This document shows, piece by piece, positions 26,718 through 36,749 of a DNA stretch of 36,749 nt (positions within the stretch are counted from its first letter, which is position 1; each line of letters starts with the position of its first letter). A model generated the notes under the pieces. That model searched no databases, was not told the origin of the DNA, and saw only the letters and a program-made list of their open reading frames with translations. A program made the translations under genes and the position numbers. Origin of the DNA: a virus (taxonomy: Duplodnaviria > Heunggongvirae > Uroviricota > Caudoviricetes); the IMG/VR virus record IMGVR_UViG_2579779084_000014; one strand, 5' to 3'.

Positions 26718-27095
26718 TCAGCGTTTTAACTGGAAATGAGGCCCGTCTTTCAGCGTTTTCCAGTCTCCGCCCCATTCGATGGCGACACCCAGCTCTGCGG
26801 CAGCCTGTTTAAAGGCACGGGCGATTTTTTCGTATAACGGCCAGTCCCATGAAATAGTGCTACCAACGTAAGCCACGACATCAACGGCATCGCCAGTAAG
26901 GTGACGGCTGTTCATGGTCTGGCTCTTGCCTTCAGCGACAAGTTGTTTCTGACGTTCTTTCGTGCGTAAACCTTCGGTAATACCAAAATCGACGTCCGAC
27001 AACGCCAGCGCACGGCGTACAACTGCCACCAGTTGTGGCTTTACGTCAGCCAGATTTTTCTCGCTACGTTGACTGAAACGGAATTTTCCCGACAT
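26718..27095 (-). CDS. endolysin, peptidase M15-type (L-alanyl-D-glutamate peptidase-like)
   Basis: 126 aa from internal ATG with GGAGGTG SD; metal-ligand motifs SRHLTGDAVD and DGPHFQL typical of M15 endolysins. Confidence 0.75.
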   Translation of the reverse strand: MSGKFRFSQRSEKNLADVKPQLVAVVRRALALSDVDFGITEGLRTKERQKQLVAEGKSQTMNSRHLTGDAVDVVAYVGSTISWDWPLYEKIARAFKQAAAELGVAIEWGGDWKTLKDGPHFQLKR

Positions 27096-27097
27096 AT

Positions 27098-27376
27098 TCA
27101 CCTCCGCAATAACGAAAGGATTTTTGACAAATTCCCGTGCGCCCACACGATAAGCGCACAGAAAACCAGATTCAGCGCCACAACCAGCCAGCTGGATTGC
27201 GTGTATGTACCGGACAGCCAGCGGAACGGGATGATGACGTAGCCGAGCATCAGCCAGTACGCCAGCCAGGTAATCATCGGTTTGTGCGCCGCACCGTGGC
27301 GGCGATACACAAACAACCCCAGAACAATGGTGAGACACAGCCAGACGTTCACGATACCGGCAAGGCTACTTTCCAT
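27098..27376 (-). CDS. small membrane protein of the lysis cassette (holin/antiholin-like)
   Basis: Start set at ATG with GGAGGGGG SD; three hydrophobic segments; stop 2 nt before the endolysin ATG. Confidence 0.5.
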   Translation of the reverse strand: MESSLAGIVNVWLCLTIVLGLFVYRRHGAAHKPMITWLAYWLMLGYVIIPFRWLSGTYTQSSWLVVALNLVFCALIVWAHGNLSKILSLLRR

Positions 27377-28260: not shown

Positions 28261-28728
28261 TTAATCAAAAAGCCCCACCTGGGTGGGGCTTTTCAGCGAA
28301 GTCTGTTTTTGTCGTCGGTGTATCAGCTGCCATGCGTACCGGTCTGAAATCCCGTAGCGGGGACAGAGCAGTGCCAGCGCCTGCCGGTGTGAGCATCCGT
28401 CTTTTACATGCTGCTGTAAATCAGCCATAAAACGGGTGTTACGCAGGGCACGTAACGCATGATCACAACGGGGAATGTAAAACGGTGCACCGCCAAGAAA
28501 GCGGATCAGTTTGTTGATTTCGTCTTCGGTCAGCACATCATGTAACAGGGCATGGACACCGCCGGTGCGTCCGGCGTGTGCGCCGGTTTTACCGCTTAAC
28601 GTCACGCCACCAAAAGAACGGATTAACCGGGTCAGGGCGGGGAAGCCAATCACGCTAATCAGTTGCTGTACGGAATCGGGCAGCAGTGCCTGCGCATCGC
28701 GAAGATCTGTTTCACTGAAGGTCTGCAT
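28261..28728 (-). CDS. Mor/C-family transcriptional activator (middle/late gene activator)
   Basis: 155 aa; C-terminal HTH-like CPRYGISDRYAWQLIHRR resembling the Mor/C family; position between gemA and lysis genes. Confidence 0.65.
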   Translation of the reverse strand: MQTFSETDLRDAQALLPDSVQQLISVIGFPALTRLIRSFGGVTLSGKTGAHAGRTGGVHALLHDVLTEDEINKLIRFLGGAPFYIPRCDHALRALRNTRFMADLQQHVKDGCSHRQALALLCPRYGISDRYAWQLIHRRQKQTSLKSPTQVGLFD

Positions 28729-28823: not shown

Positions 28824-29237
28824 TTATTGTTTACGTGCTGCTCTGGCTCGTTTTCTGGCGTCTTTTGTCAGCGCCACCATCACCCCGAACAGCTGATCAT
28901 CTGTCAGCCATTCGATCACATGTTGCTTATACATGTGAGATGCCAGTCCTTCCGCATACGCCCAGGAACGACCGGCATCAGCCAGCAACGCCTCAATTTT
29001 GGATAATACCGATTTTCTGCTCATTGCAACACGGGGGCGGCGACCTTTACCGGCGGGCGCTTTGCGCGGAAATCCCTGTTCGTGCATGTATTCCCGGATG
29101 ATGCGCAGTTCATCGAGATTGCAGCGTGTGGTGCTGGTTTTACCGGTCAGGCGGGCCAGCGTCTGACGATAAAGGGCATCATCCCACCCCAGATACGCCT
29201 GACCGGCTTTAATGGCTCCGATCATCTTTTTCAGCAT
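28824..29237 (-). CDS. gemA: GemA-like regulatory protein
   Basis: 137 aa from the internal ATG at 29237; MLKKMIGAIKAGQAYLGWDDALYRQ...RKAPAGKGRRP pattern matches the GemA family (by recollection); lies immediately upstream of a Mor/C-family gene as in Mu. Confidence 0.65.
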   Translation of the reverse strand: MLKKMIGAIKAGQAYLGWDDALYRQTLARLTGKTSTTRCNLDELRIIREYMHEQGFPRKAPAGKGRRPRVAMSRKSVLSKIEALLADAGRSWAYAEGLASHMYKQHVIEWLTDDQLFGVMVALTKDARKRARAARKQ

Positions 29238-29487
29238 GTTTGTTATCCTCAAAACGCACGGTAAAACGTGAAACACCAATCCCCGACAGGAACGCGGCGG
29301 CACGGTCAAGAGACAGCCACGTCTTGTAATCGCCACGGCGTTCCTGTAGAAAATAGGACACCCCGGCGCGGCGATTCACAGCGAAGAGGTGATACACACC
29401 ATCGAACCGCTGCACGACGAACTCATCCACGCCACCGCTTTCAGCCTGCTGCCGGAAGGCTGCCATTCCGATTTGTTCAATTTTCAT
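29209..29487 (-). CDS. hypothetical early protein (92 aa from MKIEQIG)
   Basis: Track ORF trimmed to the internal ATG; the track's N-terminal 12 codons are a translation of an operator-like palindrome. Confidence 0.45.
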   Translation of the reverse strand: MKIEQIGMAAFRQQAESGGVDEFVVQRFDGVYHLFAVNRRAGVSYFLQERRGDYKTWLSLDRAAAFLSGIGVSRFTVRFEDNKHAEKDDRSH

Positions 29488-29490
29488 AAT

Positions 29491-29537
29491 GACCAAAACA
29501 TTACTTTTGGCAGACCAAAACACATGTTTTGGTCTGC
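29491..29537. promoter_or_regulatory. operator-like array: 13-bp-arm palindrome GCAGACCAAAACA-CA-TGTTTTGGTCTGC plus a third direct GACCAAAACA copy
   Basis: Read directly from the sequence; ends 3 nt upstream of the ATG of the 92-aa gene (29487). Confidence 0.4.
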
Positions 29538-29641
29538 ATTTGATTACCGTTTAAACAACTCGCGAAATCAGGAACGTCGAGTTACGGTGATGGCTTTCAT
29601 CGTGTTGTTGCTCCGTGATTCAGAAAATTCCATATCAAGCC

Positions 29642-30052
29642 TCAGTATGTGAAATAGACAGTTGCCACGCCGTTATAGTGATCAAACGACACGGCGTTTA
29701 CCTCATAACTGGCCGGGAGCTTCGAGCCAAGAACGTATCCGGGCCACGTTTTCCATGGAATTTCTCTGCGCTCACTATCGCCATATACCGTACATCCCAG
29801 TGAGCCTACAGCTTCATTAGAACGCGTGCCGCACGTTATAAATCCCAGATTTTGCTTACTGCTCTTAATGGTGATTGGGTGAACGCTGGCTGATGCATTA
29901 GCAGCACGCTGTGCCTGTTGGTTTGCGATATTCGCAGAGTTCGCAGCAGCTACAGCAGCCGTAGTCGCGGCGGTAGAGGCTACAATAGCTGCTGAAGCAT
30001 GCACTTGTTGGGTAATTGTCAGCAATGCCGCCACAAAAACCATTTTCTTCAC
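29642..30052 (-). CDS. secreted/periplasmic protein with N-terminal signal peptide (moron candidate)
   Basis: MKKMVFVAALLTITQQVHA|SAA: basic N-region, hydrophobic core, AxA-type cleavage site; strong SD AAGGAGGTG upstream; alanine-rich mature part. Confidence 0.6.
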   Translation of the reverse strand: MKKMVFVAALLTITQQVHASAAIVASTAATTAAVAAANSANIANQQAQRAANASASVHPITIKSSKQNLGFITCGTRSNEAVGSLGCTVYGDSERREIPWKTWPGYVLGSKLPASYEVNAVSFDHYNGVATVYFTY

Positions 30053-30064
30053 CTGGCACCTCCT

Positions 30065-30244
30065 TTACATACCGTGATTTTTCCAGCGGTTTTGGGCTGC
30101 GCTTCTGTTTCGCCAGACACCGTAAAAACGAATAGAGGACCACTCCCTAAAACCAAGATATCTATAGCGAACAACAAGCCGATTTGAGATACGGATAAGC
30201 TGTCCGGGTTTTGCTATCAGCAGTCTTGCTTTACGGTTTTTCAT
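30065..30244 (-). CDS. possible unannotated 59-aa highly basic small protein (MKNRKARLLIAKPGQLIRISNRLVVRYRYLGFREWSSIRFYGVWRNRSAAQNRWKNHGM)
   Basis: Below the 60-aa track cutoff; ATG 5 nt after the upstream stop, preceded by GGAGA; its stop directly precedes the AGGAGGTG of the next gene. Confidence 0.3.
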   Translation of the reverse strand: MKNRKARLLIAKPGQLIRISNRLVVRYRYLGFREWSSIRFYGVWRNRSAAQNRWKNHGM

Positions 30245-30248
30245 CGTT

Positions 30249-30437
30249 TCATTCTCCTGTATTTACCACTGACTCTGCACTATCAGCCCTGCGGCGCGCC
30301 TGAAGTTCCAGCATTGCGGCCCGGAAATCCTGCCACCATACCTCATCGGCAACGGGGGTGTTCCGATCCAGCACCTTGTCCGCATCGGCAATCAGTCTGG
30401 CCAGGCTCTTATCGCTTATTCTGGTTTGCTGGTTCAC
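30249..30437 (-). CDS. hypothetical small protein (62 aa)
   Basis: Co-directional ORF, 4-nt overlap with the upstream gene. Confidence 0.35.
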   Translation of the reverse strand: MNQQTRISDKSLARLIADADKVLDRNTPVADEVWWQDFRAAMLELQARRRADSAESVVNTGE

Positions 30438-30658
30438 TGCGCCGCCTCCTGTTTTGCCACTTTAAACGCCCGTAACATCGGGACCCTCTTACCGTAGATG
30501 ACGGTTCTCATTAAAAGGCCTCCATCACTCTTATGGTGCACTTCAGGGGCCACAAACAGCGCCGCATCCACAACCCGGCAATAGTGACGGAACTCCCAGA
30601 ACCAGCAGGAAATAGTGATAACTGCGGTACCATTGTGTTCATAAAATTCAATATTCAT
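30434..30658 (-). CDS. hypothetical small protein (74 aa)
   Basis: Co-directional ORF, 4-nt overlap with the upstream gene. Confidence 0.4.
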   Translation of the reverse strand: MNIEFYEHNGTAVITISCWFWEFRHYCRVVDAALFVAPEVHHKSDGGLLMRTVIYGKRVPMLRAFKVAKQEAAQ

Positions 30659-30882
30659 TTGCAGTTAAACCTCCTTTTATGGCGTTCTACGGCGGCTTTC
30701 ATGGCGTTGTGCACGGTTCTTTTAATAATCCGGCGTCCCGCACTGTCATAGAACCGCCACCGGGAAGCCCCCGGATATCCGGGGAACTCAACCGCTGCGC
30801 TACCGTCATCCATCCTGTATTCGTGGCGTTCTCCGGGCGGCTGGTATATTGCTTCGGTAACACTGAGAAGTTTAAAAGCCAT
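30655..30882 (-). CDS. hypothetical small protein (75 aa)
   Basis: Co-directional ORF abutting neighbours. Confidence 0.4.
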   Translation of the reverse strand: MAFKLLSVTEAIYQPPGERHEYRMDDGSAAVEFPGYPGASRWRFYDSAGRRIIKRTVHNAMKAAVERHKRRFNCK

Positions 30883-30884
30883 CG

Positions 30885-31595
30885 TTACACCCTCCCCAGT
30901 GCCAGCGTTTTGTTGCTCTGACCATTAACCCCCTGATGCAGTCTGGCGTTTTTCCCGGCGATAAAACCGGCTGTAGCGGCAGACTCTGCACCCCGGCACG
31001 CTTTAGCGGTGCGCATATCCCCGTCGCGCAGTCCCTTGGTGCTGTGCAGGTTCTTTCTGTAAAGCTCAAGGCGGCTTTTTTCTTCCGGGGAGACGTCATA
31101 CACCGCAATGACATCACGGGCACCAAAGACCCAGCCTTCGCAGAACTGGTCGCCACGGGCCACCCGCGTGGACGGGCCGCAACGTTTGCAGTGTTTATCC
31201 TGATATTTCTTGCGCTCTGCCATCATCTGACGGGAAAGCACATCAAACGCGTAGGCCGCGATTTCCGGGCGGCTGTCAGGACCATAAAAACGAACGTAAC
31301 GTTTGAGTGAACCAGAAGCCCGGTATTCGCCGGAGATGTAACACTCGACACCGAAGGCTTTACAGACCAGGTCACACAGGATGTGCATATAACGCGGCGG
31401 TGTACTGGCATCACTCGGCGCACCCGCGCTGGCAGCGTCCTGAATGTCGAACAATTCCGCGTCGTTTTCGCTGATACCATGCTGGCGCATATAAGCCTGG
31501 GCTTTTGCAATAGCGTTAGCGGCTTCTTCCGGGCTTGATGTCCCTCTTGCAAGGCGTAACAGCTTTTTAATTTTGGCGATGTATTTATTTTTCAT
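30885..31595 (-). CDS. DUF2786-like prophage protein
   Basis: 236 aa; N-terminus KIKKLLRLARGTSSPEEAANAIAKAQAYM is the characteristic DUF2786 helix pattern (from memory); cysteine-rich C-terminal part. Confidence 0.6.
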   Translation of the reverse strand: MKNKYIAKIKKLLRLARGTSSPEEAANAIAKAQAYMRQHGISENDAELFDIQDAASAGAPSDASTPPRYMHILCDLVCKAFGVECYISGEYRASGSLKRYVRFYGPDSRPEIAAYAFDVLSRQMMAERKKYQDKHCKRCGPSTRVARGDQFCEGWVFGARDVIAVYDVSPEEKSRLELYRKNLHSTKGLRDGDMRTAKACRGAESAATAGFIAGKNARLHQGVNGQSNKTLALGRV

Positions 31596-33794: not shown

Positions 33795-34688
33795 TCAGTG
33801 AATTAACATTTCTGCGAATTTATCTATGGCCTGCACACTGACCGGCGCATCGCTGATATCGCAAATCCGGTACACACCGCGCGCCAGTTTGAACAGGCGG
33901 CGGGCATTACCCAGCGAGCGCGCGTAAAGCGCCTCGCTGATTTCCGGTTCTGCTGCTTCCGGCATCAGCCCGGTGGCTATCTGGTTAAAATCTTCCTGCG
34001 CCAGCGTGTCGCCCAGGTTAAGCGCCAGCGCCACGCGGCTGTATAACTGCGCAAATTCACCACGACGCCCCTTGAGATTAATCAGAAGACGAGGCATACC
34101 CGCCAGGACAACCCCGATACCCGCTTTATCATGCAGACGGCGCAGAACCTCCAGTGCGCGATAGGGGAGCAGTTCAGCTTCGTCCACCATCAGCAGACGA
34201 CCGGAATCACGCAGTTCGCGCACACAGGCATCAATCAGTTCGTGAATGTTGCCGCGAACCTTTACCCCCAGCTGGCGGCACAACTCCTCAAGCAGTGTCC
34301 TGGCTGTATAGCCCGGGTCAGCCTCAATCAGGACCGCATCCCGGTTTCTGGCGGCGTATTCACGCAGAATCATTGTTTTGCCAAGGCCAGCTGCGCCATA
34401 CAGCACACAGATTTCACATTCCAGGTGAGCGTAGGCCAGCACCTCCAGTCCTTTGGCAGCCATACCGGTGGTCACAAACTTTGCTTTAATACGGCGGCTG
34501 TTTTCCTTTTCCCGCTCACGGGTCACAAAGGCAGAAATGCGTTCTTCAATATCAGCCATATCGCCCTGATATTTACCCTGCAAATACTGGTTGATAACGG
34601 CGCTGCTACGGCCAATTGCACGGGCGACGTGGGTCTGCGTATAGCCGCGACGGGCCATTACGTCATTTAATTGCGTAATTAAACTCAT
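33795..34688 (-). CDS. B: Mu B-like transposition ATPase / target DNA activator
   Basis: 297 aa; Walker A motif GAAGLGKT; N-terminal HTH-like segment; adjacent to the transposase. Confidence 0.85.
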   Translation of the reverse strand: MSLITQLNDVMARRGYTQTHVARAIGRSSAVINQYLQGKYQGDMADIEERISAFVTREREKENSRRIKAKFVTTGMAAKGLEVLAYAHLECEICVLYGAAGLGKTMILREYAARNRDAVLIEADPGYTARTLLEELCRQLGVKVRGNIHELIDACVRELRDSGRLLMVDEAELLPYRALEVLRRLHDKAGIGVVLAGMPRLLINLKGRRGEFAQLYSRVALALNLGDTLAQEDFNQIATGLMPEAAEPEISEALYARSLGNARRLFKLARGVYRICDISDAPVSVQAIDKFAEMLIH

Positions 34689-34706: not shown

Positions 34707-36749
34707 TTAACGGTTGTTTGTGCCGTTTTTCTTTAAATTGCGCTCGCGTTCAGATGCGAATAAATAAAGTTCTTCTTTTTCCTTTTTCTCCGGGCGCTCC
34801 AGACCAAATCCAAAATTAAACTCAGATTTCTGCGTAATAGCCGGGGTAAGCTCGCGTTTAGCCTCTTCGATTTTCTGCGTGGCCCGTGCAATGCGGCCTC
34901 TGACGCGTTTCTCCAGTTTTTGCTCGATAACTGGTTTAGCGAAGGCATCAACCTTATTGCCGTTCCAGATGGCATCGCAGATATAAGAGCCATCAGCCCG
35001 ACGGACAATGACACTGTTTGCGTCATGAATATCGTAACTGACCCTGACTTCATTCCCGTGCTCTGCGGCCAGTTCATACGAGTAATAAATATTGTTGAAT
35101 AACTGAATTTCCCCGCGAAATGTTTTGCGCGTCACTTCCGGCCTGAACATTTCATGCAGTTCTTCCTGCGACAGAAAATCAATTTCAACATTCTGCTCTT
35201 TTATCAGTTTCCGGCGATACGCTGCCGGGCTGTAATATTCGCCATCCTCTTTGCGGGGAAGGCTGCTGTGTGGCCGGTTGTTATAGCGTCTGACCTCCAG
35301 CTCTATGGCGGCCATCAGTTGCTCAAAGGTGGGGATTTCATCCCTCGCCTTAACCTGCCGTTTTGTCAGTTCTTTCCCTTTGTGGGTGGCCTTAATGGCC
35401 GACTGCATAATCCGTTGCTGCATCATTACGGTTTCCTTGTCTGCATCCTTTGCGCAGTACGTCTGGAAACTCAGTGCCACGTCTTTGGGTATTCCTTTGT
35501 TTGCCCGTTCTATTACCCCGCGCCCCTGCGGGTTACCCGGTATCCCCGTGTGATGCTCCACACCCAGCCGGGGCAGAATCCCGGTAATATCGGCATCAAG
35601 CACCCGGTTTTTTTCGCCGCCCCCGTTATCGGAATAATAAATCAGCGGTATCCCGTGCTGTGCCATGCCGTAACGCAACGCATCAGCAACGGCTATCACG
35701 TTTTCCGACAGGGACAGTGACCAGCCCACAACAAAGCGCTGCCCCGCATCCATAACCAGCGTCACTTCTGGCCGGAAAATATTGCCGGTCAGGGGGTTAA
35801 ACGCGGTCATTTTCATACAGTGACCATCCCCGACCCATACCGCATTAACCGGTAATGATGTCCACTCGCGCCGCACAAAGGGATTGAGCGAACGCCAGGC
35901 TGAACCTGTGGAGCGGAAACGCTCCTTAACAATCACCGGGACGCTGCTTAACACTCGTCTTACTGCGTGAACTGAAGGCAGTGCCGCCAGCATTCCCGCA
36001 TCATTCGCGTGTTTCTCATGCCACCAGGCTGAAAACTCGCGATAAGCGTATTCAACGGTCGGGCGCTTCCATGAGCGATAGAACATAAAGAAATCGCTCA
36101 GCCACCAGACCTGCTCCCACGGAGTTCCCTTATGATGACCGGGAGCCAGTAACGCCAGTAACTGATTGGCATCACCGCGCGCCATCACCCAGCTGGAGTA
36201 CCAGCTATCCAGGCTGCCGGTGCTGACACCGGTTCGCTTTCCCTGACGTGCATTTGCAGTATTCGCTGCTTCGATAATGCGGTCAGGTAACGCCCCCATG
36301 CGCACACCATCAACGATGTGCTTTAACGCGGCCTTCCTGGTCATTCCGGCGTATTCACGCAGTTTATGCACTTCAGTAGCCAGCAATATCCGCGCATCAG
36401 CAATGGCCTTTTGCTTGTCGGTCAGTGCCTGGACTTCGCGTAATGCCAGTTCCGGGCATTTGACCATCACTTCCAGTTCATCGCGAACGGCGACGTTTTT
36501 AACTGCCTTCTGCTCAACCACGGCGGGCAGTTGTGCATCTTCCAGGACCTGATGAGTCAGGCGCTTACGTAAAACTTTCTGCGCTTCAGCGGGCAGGCTG
36601 TCGATGTGATACTCGAATGCTTTTGTGCCTTCACGCTTGCGCTTCCATTCCGGGTGCGTCTCTGTGATCCGATTGAGCGTCCATCGCACCCCCTGAACTG
36701 TACCGGGCAAACGAGGAAGACCGGCCAGCTCATTGGCTGAATAAAACAT
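34707..36749 (-). CDS. A: Mu-type DDE transposase (MuA-like); ORF reaches the window edge so the true start may lie beyond 36749
   Basis: 680 aa. N-terminus (ANELAGLPRLPGT...) resembles the MuA N-terminus; catalytic-core-like motifs VWVGDGH and YYSDNGGG; sits directly upstream of a MuB-like gene as in Mu. Confidence 0.85.
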   Translation of the reverse strand: MFYSANELAGLPRLPGTVQGVRWTLNRITETHPEWKRKREGTKAFEYHIDSLPAEAQKVLRKRLTHQVLEDAQLPAVVEQKAVKNVAVRDELEVMVKCPELALREVQALTDKQKAIADARILLATEVHKLREYAGMTRKAALKHIVDGVRMGALPDRIIEAANTANARQGKRTGVSTGSLDSWYSSWVMARGDANQLLALLAPGHHKGTPWEQVWWLSDFFMFYRSWKRPTVEYAYREFSAWWHEKHANDAGMLAALPSVHAVRRVLSSVPVIVKERFRSTGSAWRSLNPFVRREWTSLPVNAVWVGDGHCMKMTAFNPLTGNIFRPEVTLVMDAGQRFVVGWSLSLSENVIAVADALRYGMAQHGIPLIYYSDNGGGEKNRVLDADITGILPRLGVEHHTGIPGNPQGRGVIERANKGIPKDVALSFQTYCAKDADKETVMMQQRIMQSAIKATHKGKELTKRQVKARDEIPTFEQLMAAIELEVRRYNNRPHSSLPRKEDGEYYSPAAYRRKLIKEQNVEIDFLSQEELHEMFRPEVTRKTFRGEIQLFNNIYYSYELAAEHGNEVRVSYDIHDANSVIVRRADGSYICDAIWNGNKVDAFAKPVIEQKLEKRVRGRIARATQKIEEAKRELTPAITQKSEFNFGFGLERPEKKEKEELYLFASERERNLKKNGTNNR

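Follow-up and report, generated by a model that had tools for sequence, protein, structure and literature searches.

We analyzed a 36,749-nucleotide stretch of viral DNA (IMG/VR record IMGVR_UViG_2579779084_000014; hereafter, the window), a Mu-like transposable prophage of E. coli in which all genes lie on the minus strand, and focused on two adjacent open reading frames (ORFs) of its early region. One encodes a 136-amino-acid (aa) protein with a predicted Sec signal peptide, and the other, immediately upstream, encodes a basic protein of 59 aa; the pair sits between the DUF2786 gene and the GemA gene (Table 1). As the original prediction, made from the sequence alone, had proposed, the surroundings are those of a Mu early region. 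Genes for a Mu transposase, a MuB-like ATPase, GemA, and Mor are present in the same orientation and are followed by lysis genes and Mu-type head genes, and further Pfam matches in the window are to DUF3164, Phage_holin_8, Peptidase_M15_4, Portal_Mu, and Phage_Mu_F. The locus corresponds to the variable "semi-essential" region of the Mu early operon. Positions 29400 to 30500 of the window recur with 100% identity in several E. coli chromosomes and on two 249-kb plasmids.

Table 1. Features of the two-gene locus and of its surroundings (positions in the window; SD, Shine-Dalgarno sequence)
Feature	Position	Strand	Basis or annotation
136-aa gene, predicted exported phage protein, GTG start	29642-30052	minus	PHROG 8805; RefSeq WP_032300908.1 "hypothetical protein"
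59-aa basic protein gene	30065-30244	minus	PHROG 1380; RefSeq WP_029392801.1 "hypothetical protein"
SD of 136-aa gene, AGGAGGTG	30057-30064	minus	Read from sequence; AGGAGG ends 6 nt before GTG
SD of 59-aa gene, AGGAG	30254-30258	minus	Read from sequence; 9 nt upstream of ATG 30244
Predicted Sec signal peptide, residues 1-19 (MKK, MVFVAALLTIT, QQVHA; site VHA/S)	29996-30052	minus	n/h/c rule and family conservation
Ala-rich linker, residues 20-56, predicted helical	29885-29995	minus	Composition, hydropathy, model
Conserved C-terminal domain, residues 57-136, invariant C74 and C87	29645-29884	minus	Family alignment
Insertion/deletion cassette (SD, 136-aa gene, and scar of ~90 nt), approximate	29555-30073	minus	Alignment with E2348/69, M8, 08-00022
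Noncoding gap 3′ of 136-aa gene (154 bp), with 10-codon remnant ORF (29568-29600) and conserved palindrome	29488-29641	minus	Relatives L006, L007
Mu transposase	34707-36749	minus	Pfam Mu-transpos_C, HTH_Tnp_Mu_1
MuB-like AAA ATPase	33795-34688	minus	Pfam AAA_22
DUF2786/DUF7168 gene	30885-31595	minus	Pfam
GemA	28824-29336	minus	Pfam
Mor	28261-28728	minus	Pfam

The strong SD that had been claimed for the 136-aa gene is indeed present, 6 nt from a GTG start codon (30052-30050). An in-frame ATG occurs at codon 4 of this ORF, 15 nt from the SD; since this distance is too great, GTG is the likelier start. The arrangement AAGGAG-N6/7-GTG is kept in the Mu-like, lambdoid, and Av-05 copies of the gene, that is, in every context examined. 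Only 12 nt separate the 59-aa ORF from the 136-aa ORF, and the TAA stop codon of the former (30067-30065) directly abuts the SD of the latter. On its other side, the ATG of the 59-aa ORF (30244) lies 4 nt after the TGA (30251-30249) of an upstream ORF of 62 aa, and its SD falls inside the 3′ end of that ORF.

Homology searches and substitution patterns indicate that both ORFs are genuine genes. The 136-aa protein matched PHROG 8805 over positions 1 to 136 of 136 (E = 7.4e-87), and the 59-aa protein matched PHROG 1380 over positions 1 to 58 of 62 (E = 8.2e-10); neither family has a characterized member, so membership yields no function. Word-indexed searches returned 55 homologous protein clusters for the 136-aa protein and 20 for the 59-aa protein, the latter reaching as low as 59% identity. 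With full hidden Markov model and profile searches, the 136-aa family reached down to approximately 35 to 50% identity (109 clusters with the profile). Pairwise Nei-Gojobori ratios of nonsynonymous to synonymous substitution rates (dN/dS) were 0.16 to 0.51 for the 136-aa gene and 0 to 0.50 for the 59-aa gene, which differed from its counterpart in the relative L008 by five synonymous and no nonsynonymous changes. The length and frame of the aligned 59-aa homologues were maintained down to 56% identity, with no frame disruption, in line with the earlier suggestion that this small ORF is translated as a protein. These data indicate that both genes are under purifying selection; conservation and dN/dS ruled out the reading of either as a chance ORF.

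Between conserved flanks, related prophages either carry or lack the 136-aa gene. Alignment with three genomes that do not have it (E2348/69, M8, and 08-00022) delimited a cassette of ~520 bp; in all three, a small basic ORF directly precedes the 92-aa gene that follows the cassette in the window. Homology extends to position 30074, within the small-ORF codons for ...K N H (...AAT CAC), and is found again near 29555, before a conserved palindrome. The insertion swaps the last residues of the small basic protein from TNAK to GM. The lineage, defined by GemA and 92-aa genes of ≥95% identity, comprised 58 E. coli genomes, of which ~31 carried the 136-aa gene and 27 did not (a cross-tabulation in which six low-scoring records are not listed). 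Altogether, 64 of 5426 complete E. coli genomes carried the gene. The GC content across 29450 to 30350 is 0.45 to 0.50, a small dip relative to the 0.52 to 0.58 of the flanks.

Outside this lineage, the 136-aa gene was found in very different genetic neighborhoods. It follows an ead/Ea22-like gene, overlapping its stop codon, in another Mu-like prophage, and a lambdoid early-left operon carries it close to kil, cIII, and an anti-RecBCD gene. P1-like phage-plasmids of 85 to 108 kb accounted for 17 of its 19 plasmid places, the remaining 2 being the 249-kb plasmids with a Mu-like prophage. On the P1-like elements, a close subfamily shares 88 to 95% DNA identity with the window, and a second subfamily (~50% protein identity) lies beside hot/humD/phd-doc. 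In phage Av-05 (Vequintavirinae), the gene is 80.6% identical at the DNA level, and the match covers just the SD and the ORF (window positions 29623 to 30065), ending just past the SD. Finally, a group of ~45-kb phages (KW1E_UTAR, Klebsiella KLB16/22, and metagenomic contigs) carries the gene at a fixed position upstream of the terminase gene. No neighboring gene was conserved across the Mu-like, lambdoid, P1-like, Av-05, and ~45-kb contexts. As the SD is kept in every context examined and the Av-05 match ends just past it, the SD travels with the gene. These data indicate that the 136-aa gene and its ribosome-binding site form a mobile cassette exchanged among unrelated enterobacterial phages, with recent transfer (80 to 95% DNA identity) between phage types of different lifestyles.

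The noncoding gap on the 3′ side of the gene is a deletion scar; the relatives L006 (1666-1917) and L007 (1666-2107) have one or two extra ORFs in its position. The product of one of these extra genes is 83 aa long and has a hydrophobic segment at its N terminus and several cysteines (MRWADLFIIALIVTGIALCV...; alignment reading). Given such genes in the relatives, the spot may collect envelope-directed accessory genes.

The original prediction had credited the 136-aa product with a textbook signal peptide and an Ala-rich mature domain, and both descriptions held, the former as a prediction. The signal peptide consists of an MKK n-region, an 11-residue uncharged h-region, and a V-H-A/S site (the slash marks the cleavage point). 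We called it by the n/h/c rule and by conservation of the architecture across a family alignment of 34 diverse sequences with 33 to 89% identity to the window protein. All 34 members have an n-region charge of +1 or +2, an uncharged h-region of 9 to 18 residues, and a small-x-small site, with cleavage-type sites such as VHA/S, AQA/S, SHA/S, ANA/V, and GKA/A. The residues themselves differ completely between subfamilies even though the layout is kept; a pattern in which the architecture but not the sequence is conserved speaks well, if indirectly, for a functional Sec signal peptide. The precursor is thus probably exported via Sec and cleaved after VHA (residue 19). Following the predicted site, 17 of 36 residues are Ala, and the AlphaFold model places a helix at mature residues 2 to 33. 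In distant members (P0081, P0084, and related proteins), the linker is short and rich in Pro, Thr, and Asp, with no Ala-rich stretch. Since the linker is Ala-rich only in the window's subfamily and is replaced in distant members, it does not count among the conserved functional elements of the protein.

Conservation is concentrated in the C-terminal domain, which bears the motif GFxTCG...SLGC...PW..WPGY.LG...SY.V..VSFD.YN.VATVYF.Y. Twelve residues are invariant (G70, T73, C74, G75, C87, P104, Y116, D124, T131, Y133, F134, and Y136), and a disulfide between C74 and C87 probably stabilizes the domain. A lipobox of the form L-[AS]-[GA]-C with Cys at +1 was absent: residues 1 to 73 contain no Cys, and C74 and C87 are the only two in the protein. 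An AlphaFold model of the full precursor, built with 16 close homologues, had a predicted local distance difference test (pLDDT) score of 51 and was discarded. Modeling of the mature protein with the 34 diverse sequences gave a mean pLDDT of 83, with block means of 88 to 96 in the domain, and predicted a topology of four strands, a short helix, and two strands. Foldseek found no solved structural relative of this model in the PDB (best E = 0.1), and a sequence search of the PDB with the 136-aa protein gave no match. In BFVD, the one significant fold match was a 117-aa protein with 35% identity, most likely a member of the same family.

Database searches with the 136-aa protein returned no match in Pfam, NCBIfam, or PADLOC, and none of the 34 family members matched Pfam. 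Literature searches by accession and PHROG number found nothing, and topical searches found general precedents only. Several specific identities were considered, and none gained support. The VATVYF-x-Y ending recalls an outer membrane protein beta-signal or a DegS-activating C terminus, a reading that was rejected because several members extend past the final Tyr (TEKK, TERRQ, R, or W). An Lpp/OprI-like "alanine zipper" coiled coil was matched by one member only (E = 0.29). DUF1471 proteins (YdgH/BhsA/McbA-like, PF07338), which are likewise small enterobacterial periplasmic proteins, differ in having no Cys pair; there was no Pfam match, and in an hhalign comparison with a profile built from eight verified DUF1471 proteins, the probability was 2.3% over only 19 columns.

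The gene had also been put forward as a candidate moron. The part of this claim that concerns distribution stood: the ~520-bp cassette is extra DNA between otherwise adjacent genes, and it is exchanged horizontally. The part that implies autonomous expression did not. A consensus scan of positions 29000 to 31000 found no sigma-70-like promoter, and there was no minus-strand terminator in the same interval, where all five terminator-like hairpins were on the plus strand. In every temperate context, the 136-aa gene lies on the strand of its neighbors, closely packed and always inside an early operon. In lysogens, the Mu early operon is kept repressed. For a Mu-like Pseudomonas phage, RNA-seq likewise showed that the lytic operon is transcribed only once repression is lifted (PMC9936078). 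Together, the lack of a detected promoter, the 12-nt packing, and the presence of the gene in Av-05 and the ~45-kb phages favor a role in the early operon and the lytic cycle, and the gene is probably expressed in lytic growth rather than in the lysogen. It resembles the morons of lambdoid and Mu-like phages in its variable presence between conserved flanks and in its horizontal exchange, and its GC content is slightly lower, by a small margin; unlike them, it has no detected flanking promoter and terminator and carries only its own SD. The gene is thus best classified, from its genomic pattern, as accessory by distribution and not as an autonomously expressed moron.

How might the product act? 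With no promoter of its own, the gene would most likely share the transcript of the early operon, made once the prophage is induced or a cell is infected, and its own strong SD and GTG start would direct translation. Sec export and cleavage after residue 19 would yield a soluble periplasmic protein of ~12 kDa, in which the Ala-rich helical linker is followed by a compact alpha/beta domain, probably held by the disulfide. As no partner gene is conserved across contexts, the mature protein probably acts alone, on an envelope or periplasmic component common to Enterobacteriaceae. The role that we tentatively favor, with a probability of roughly 40 to 45%, is protection of the infected or induced cell at the envelope, by superinfection exclusion or an entry block.

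Precedents for such a role exist. P1 Sim is an envelope-located superinfection exclusion protein, and T4 Sp and Imm are early proteins with signal sequences. Among small exported phage proteins of this kind, the role documented most often is exclusion at the envelope, as reviewed for T4 imm/sp, Cor, and SieA (PMC11436027), and an early gene of the Mu-like Pseudomonas phage mentioned above confers superinfection exclusion (PMC9936078). The 136-aa protein resembles T4 Sp (spackle), T4 Imm, and P1 Sim in that all are small phage proteins with an N-terminal export or membrane signal, are encoded in early or accessory regions, need no partner at the envelope (as proposed here for the 136-aa protein), and are not required for growth. 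It differs from these three proteins in having no sequence or fold similarity to them and in being common to several unrelated phage types rather than lineage specific. Cor (phi80 and N15) and Llp (T5), which are FhuA-blocking outer membrane lipoproteins, are similarly small, exported accessory proteins of temperate and virulent coliphages; in contrast to them, the 136-aa protein lacks a lipobox and any Cys close to the predicted point of cleavage, and no homology or fold match links it to either.

Several points weigh against an exclusion role at the envelope. To our knowledge, the phages that share the 136-aa gene are not expected to use one common receptor, so a receptor-specific block is hard to reconcile with the distribution. 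Searches of Pfam, NCBIfam, PADLOC, and the PDB, together with the fold searches, provided no sequence or fold link to a characterized exclusion protein or defense system. The export call is a prediction from rule-based inspection, and the Ala-rich segment is nearly hydrophobic enough for a membrane helix (Kyte-Doolittle 1.53). As for timing, the promoter scan was a simple consensus search that would miss weak or non-sigma-70 promoters. Moreover, P1 neighbors of the gene such as phd/doc are expressed in the carrier state, so lysogenic expression is possible in P1-like plasmids.

The strongest alternative is that the exported protein manipulates the envelope during the lytic cycle in a manner unrelated to exclusion, by inhibiting or redirecting a host periplasmic enzyme, a stress pathway, or a cell wall process. 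Lysis timing, remodeling of the peptidoglycan or outer membrane, and silencing of envelope stress are possible examples, and the gain would be in phage yield. The same evidence for export and for an early or lytic-type context applies to it. A general host target would fit better than a receptor block with phage types for which no common receptor is expected, and the occurrence of either an M15 or a GH108 endolysin in Mu-like relatives means that the gene is not tied to one lysis enzyme. On the other hand, sequence and fold searches revealed no similarity to lysozyme inhibitors, antiholins, or spanins, the gene is not adjacent to the lysis cassette, and its absence from about half of the lineage indicates that it is dispensable. 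We regard manipulation of this kind as rather unlikely in itself, if nearly as likely as exclusion.

A doubtful third possibility is classical lysogenic conversion, in which the repressed prophage would express the gene and the product would change the host surface to the benefit of the lysogen (fitness, virulence, or phage resistance). Presence or absence between conserved flanks, a GC content slightly below that of the surroundings, and exchange among temperate elements, including P1-like plasmids near phd/doc, speak for this reading, and one source labels a homologue "prophage exported protein." Nevertheless, neither a promoter-like site nor a minus-strand terminator was found between 29000 and 31000, and within early operons the gene lies 12 nt from its upstream neighbor or overlaps it. 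Furthermore, the gene occurs in Av-05 (Vequintavirinae) and, at a syntenic position, in ~45-kb phages whose examined regions show no lysogeny genes.

Still less probable is a tethered topology, in which the protein is not released because its signal acts as an uncleaved anchor or because the Ala-rich segment forms a second, weak membrane helix of the signal-arrest-release (SAR) type, leaving the C-terminal domain attached to the inner membrane. The 19-residue Kyte-Doolittle maximum of the Ala-rich segment (1.53) is close to that of the first hydrophobic segment (1.51), and a V/I-rich triplet is conserved after the predicted cleavage site in most subfamilies. However, AXA-type sites are conserved in 34 of 34 members, and the polar, Pro/Thr/Asp-rich linkers of distant members mean that a second membrane helix is not a family feature. 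Its absence from distant members likewise led us to reject a membrane or SAR helix in the Ala-rich segment as a trait of the family.

Returning to a soluble periplasmic protein, a bolder version, which we consider improbable, is that the family constitutes a structurally new type of periplasmic effector, independent of phage type, that temperate phages of the Mu-like, lambdoid, and P1-like types, Av-05, and the ~45-kb phages would have acquired time and again because it neutralizes one conserved component of the enterobacterial envelope. If so, it would provide broad exclusion of competing phages or a general takeover of the envelope in lytic growth, and identification of its target would reveal a new weak point of the host that many phages exploit. 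Superinfection exclusion and envelope-modifying functions recur among exported phage accessory proteins. The 136-aa family is unusual among them in combining a confidently predicted fold that has no solved relative, a signal peptide architecture conserved even among very divergent members, and recent transfer across lifestyles. The gene is also a tractable candidate for an expression-and-plating screen, and if it had a phenotype, the same gene would explain it in Mu-like and lambdoid prophages, in P1-like plasmids, and in at least one phage from outside the temperate groups. The two families already have catalogue entries as hypothetical phage proteins, and the immediate significance is modest.

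The tight coupling of the 59-aa ORF to the 136-aa gene, which had been taken as a sign of translation, was not borne out as a functional link. The 59-aa gene is present without the 136-aa gene in L009, L013 (E2348/69), L014, and L015, and in phage HEMP4 a gene of its family precedes unrelated genes. Conversely, no 59-aa gene lies upstream of the 136-aa gene in L010, L011, Av-05, or the P1-like plasmids. RNA folding of the ribosome-binding-site region of the 136-aa gene was no better than that of shuffled sequences (z = 0.01) and gave no support to a hairpin masking this site as a coupling mechanism. Since each gene occurs without the other, the tight spacing is incidental, and since the ribosome-binding site has no special RNA structure, it reflects ordinary operon packing and not a dedicated coupling device. 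The 59-aa gene behaves as an independent module, and the two genes appear to adjoin only by accident of mosaic assembly. Although its stop codon abuts the SD of the 136-aa gene and the pair is kept together in several Mu-like relatives, it is most improbable that the 59-aa ORF is a mere leader that loads ribosomes onto the 136-aa gene, given its conservation as a protein under purifying selection, its retention, just ahead of the 92-aa gene, in genomes without the 136-aa gene, its position before unrelated genes in HEMP4, the contexts in which the 136-aa gene does without it, and the unremarkable RNA structure (z = 0.01).

The 59-aa product has 15 Lys and Arg residues against 1 Asp or Glu and an isoelectric point of 12.0. 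It gave nothing significant in Pfam, NCBIfam, PADLOC, or the PDB and is probably cytoplasmic; its extreme basicity suggests, by pure inference, that it binds nucleic acid or the ribosome. The ORF had been described as unannotated. It is annotated as WP_029392801.1 in a genome 100% identical over 29400 to 30500 and hence is not globally unannotated. Nonetheless, annotation of the gene is inconsistent across RefSeq genomes, which is a practical point. Intact copies of 59 to 62 aa carry no annotation in many of these genomes, and in E2348/69 (L013:3187-3375) the intact 62-aa copy was missed and an adjacent 56-aa ORF was annotated instead. Variants of the small basic ORF (L007:2572-2748, L014:3205-3387, L015:3187-3369, and L009:2480-2898) keep the N terminus (MKNRKAK.LL) and the C terminus (SAAQNRWKNH) with the middle replaced, and HEMP4 has two tandem copies. 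These conserved ends may serve as recombination linkers between mosaic modules.

Other observations concern the surroundings of the pair. The mechanically derived ORF of GemA starts at GTG 29336 (170 aa), and the RefSeq start is at 29237 (137 aa), which leaves a 29-nt overlap with the 92-aa gene; in the longer version, the Pfam GemA match starts only at residue 51, in agreement with the shorter RefSeq start. The 92-aa protein (29209-29487) had a weak, subthreshold match to the ParC-family partition-associated model NF041544 of NCBIfam (E = 0.0016; 18 bits against a cutoff of 95). The two 249-kb E. coli plasmids that match 29400 to 30500 at 100% identity are NZ_OZ547097.1 and NZ_OZ547049.1. The segment with GemA and the 92-aa gene (28824-29487) is also 100% identical on both, which suggests that a Mu-like element is inserted into the plasmid. 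Among close Mu-like prophages, the endolysin is either an M15 peptidase or a GH108 glycosidase, with the same two holin genes ahead of it; comparison of window positions 26718 to 27338 with L010:1588-2133 and L013:1-280 identifies this difference as a module swap in the lysis cassette.

A palindromic element occupies positions 29490 to 29537 (minus strand), directly upstream of the ATG (29487) of the 92-aa gene (PHROG 7844). It contains AGACCAAAACA once and the complement twice (one copy with a mismatch), which allows two mutually exclusive hairpins, the second of which covers the ribosome-binding-site region of the 92-aa gene. The RNA fold of this segment had a z score of −4.1, and 0 of 200 shuffles were as stable. 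The AGACCAAAACA motif has 4 matches in the window, against 0.8 expected, and is kept in Mu-like relatives with or without the 136-aa cassette. The element may act as a switch of translation, as an attenuator, or as a palindrome to which a protein binds.

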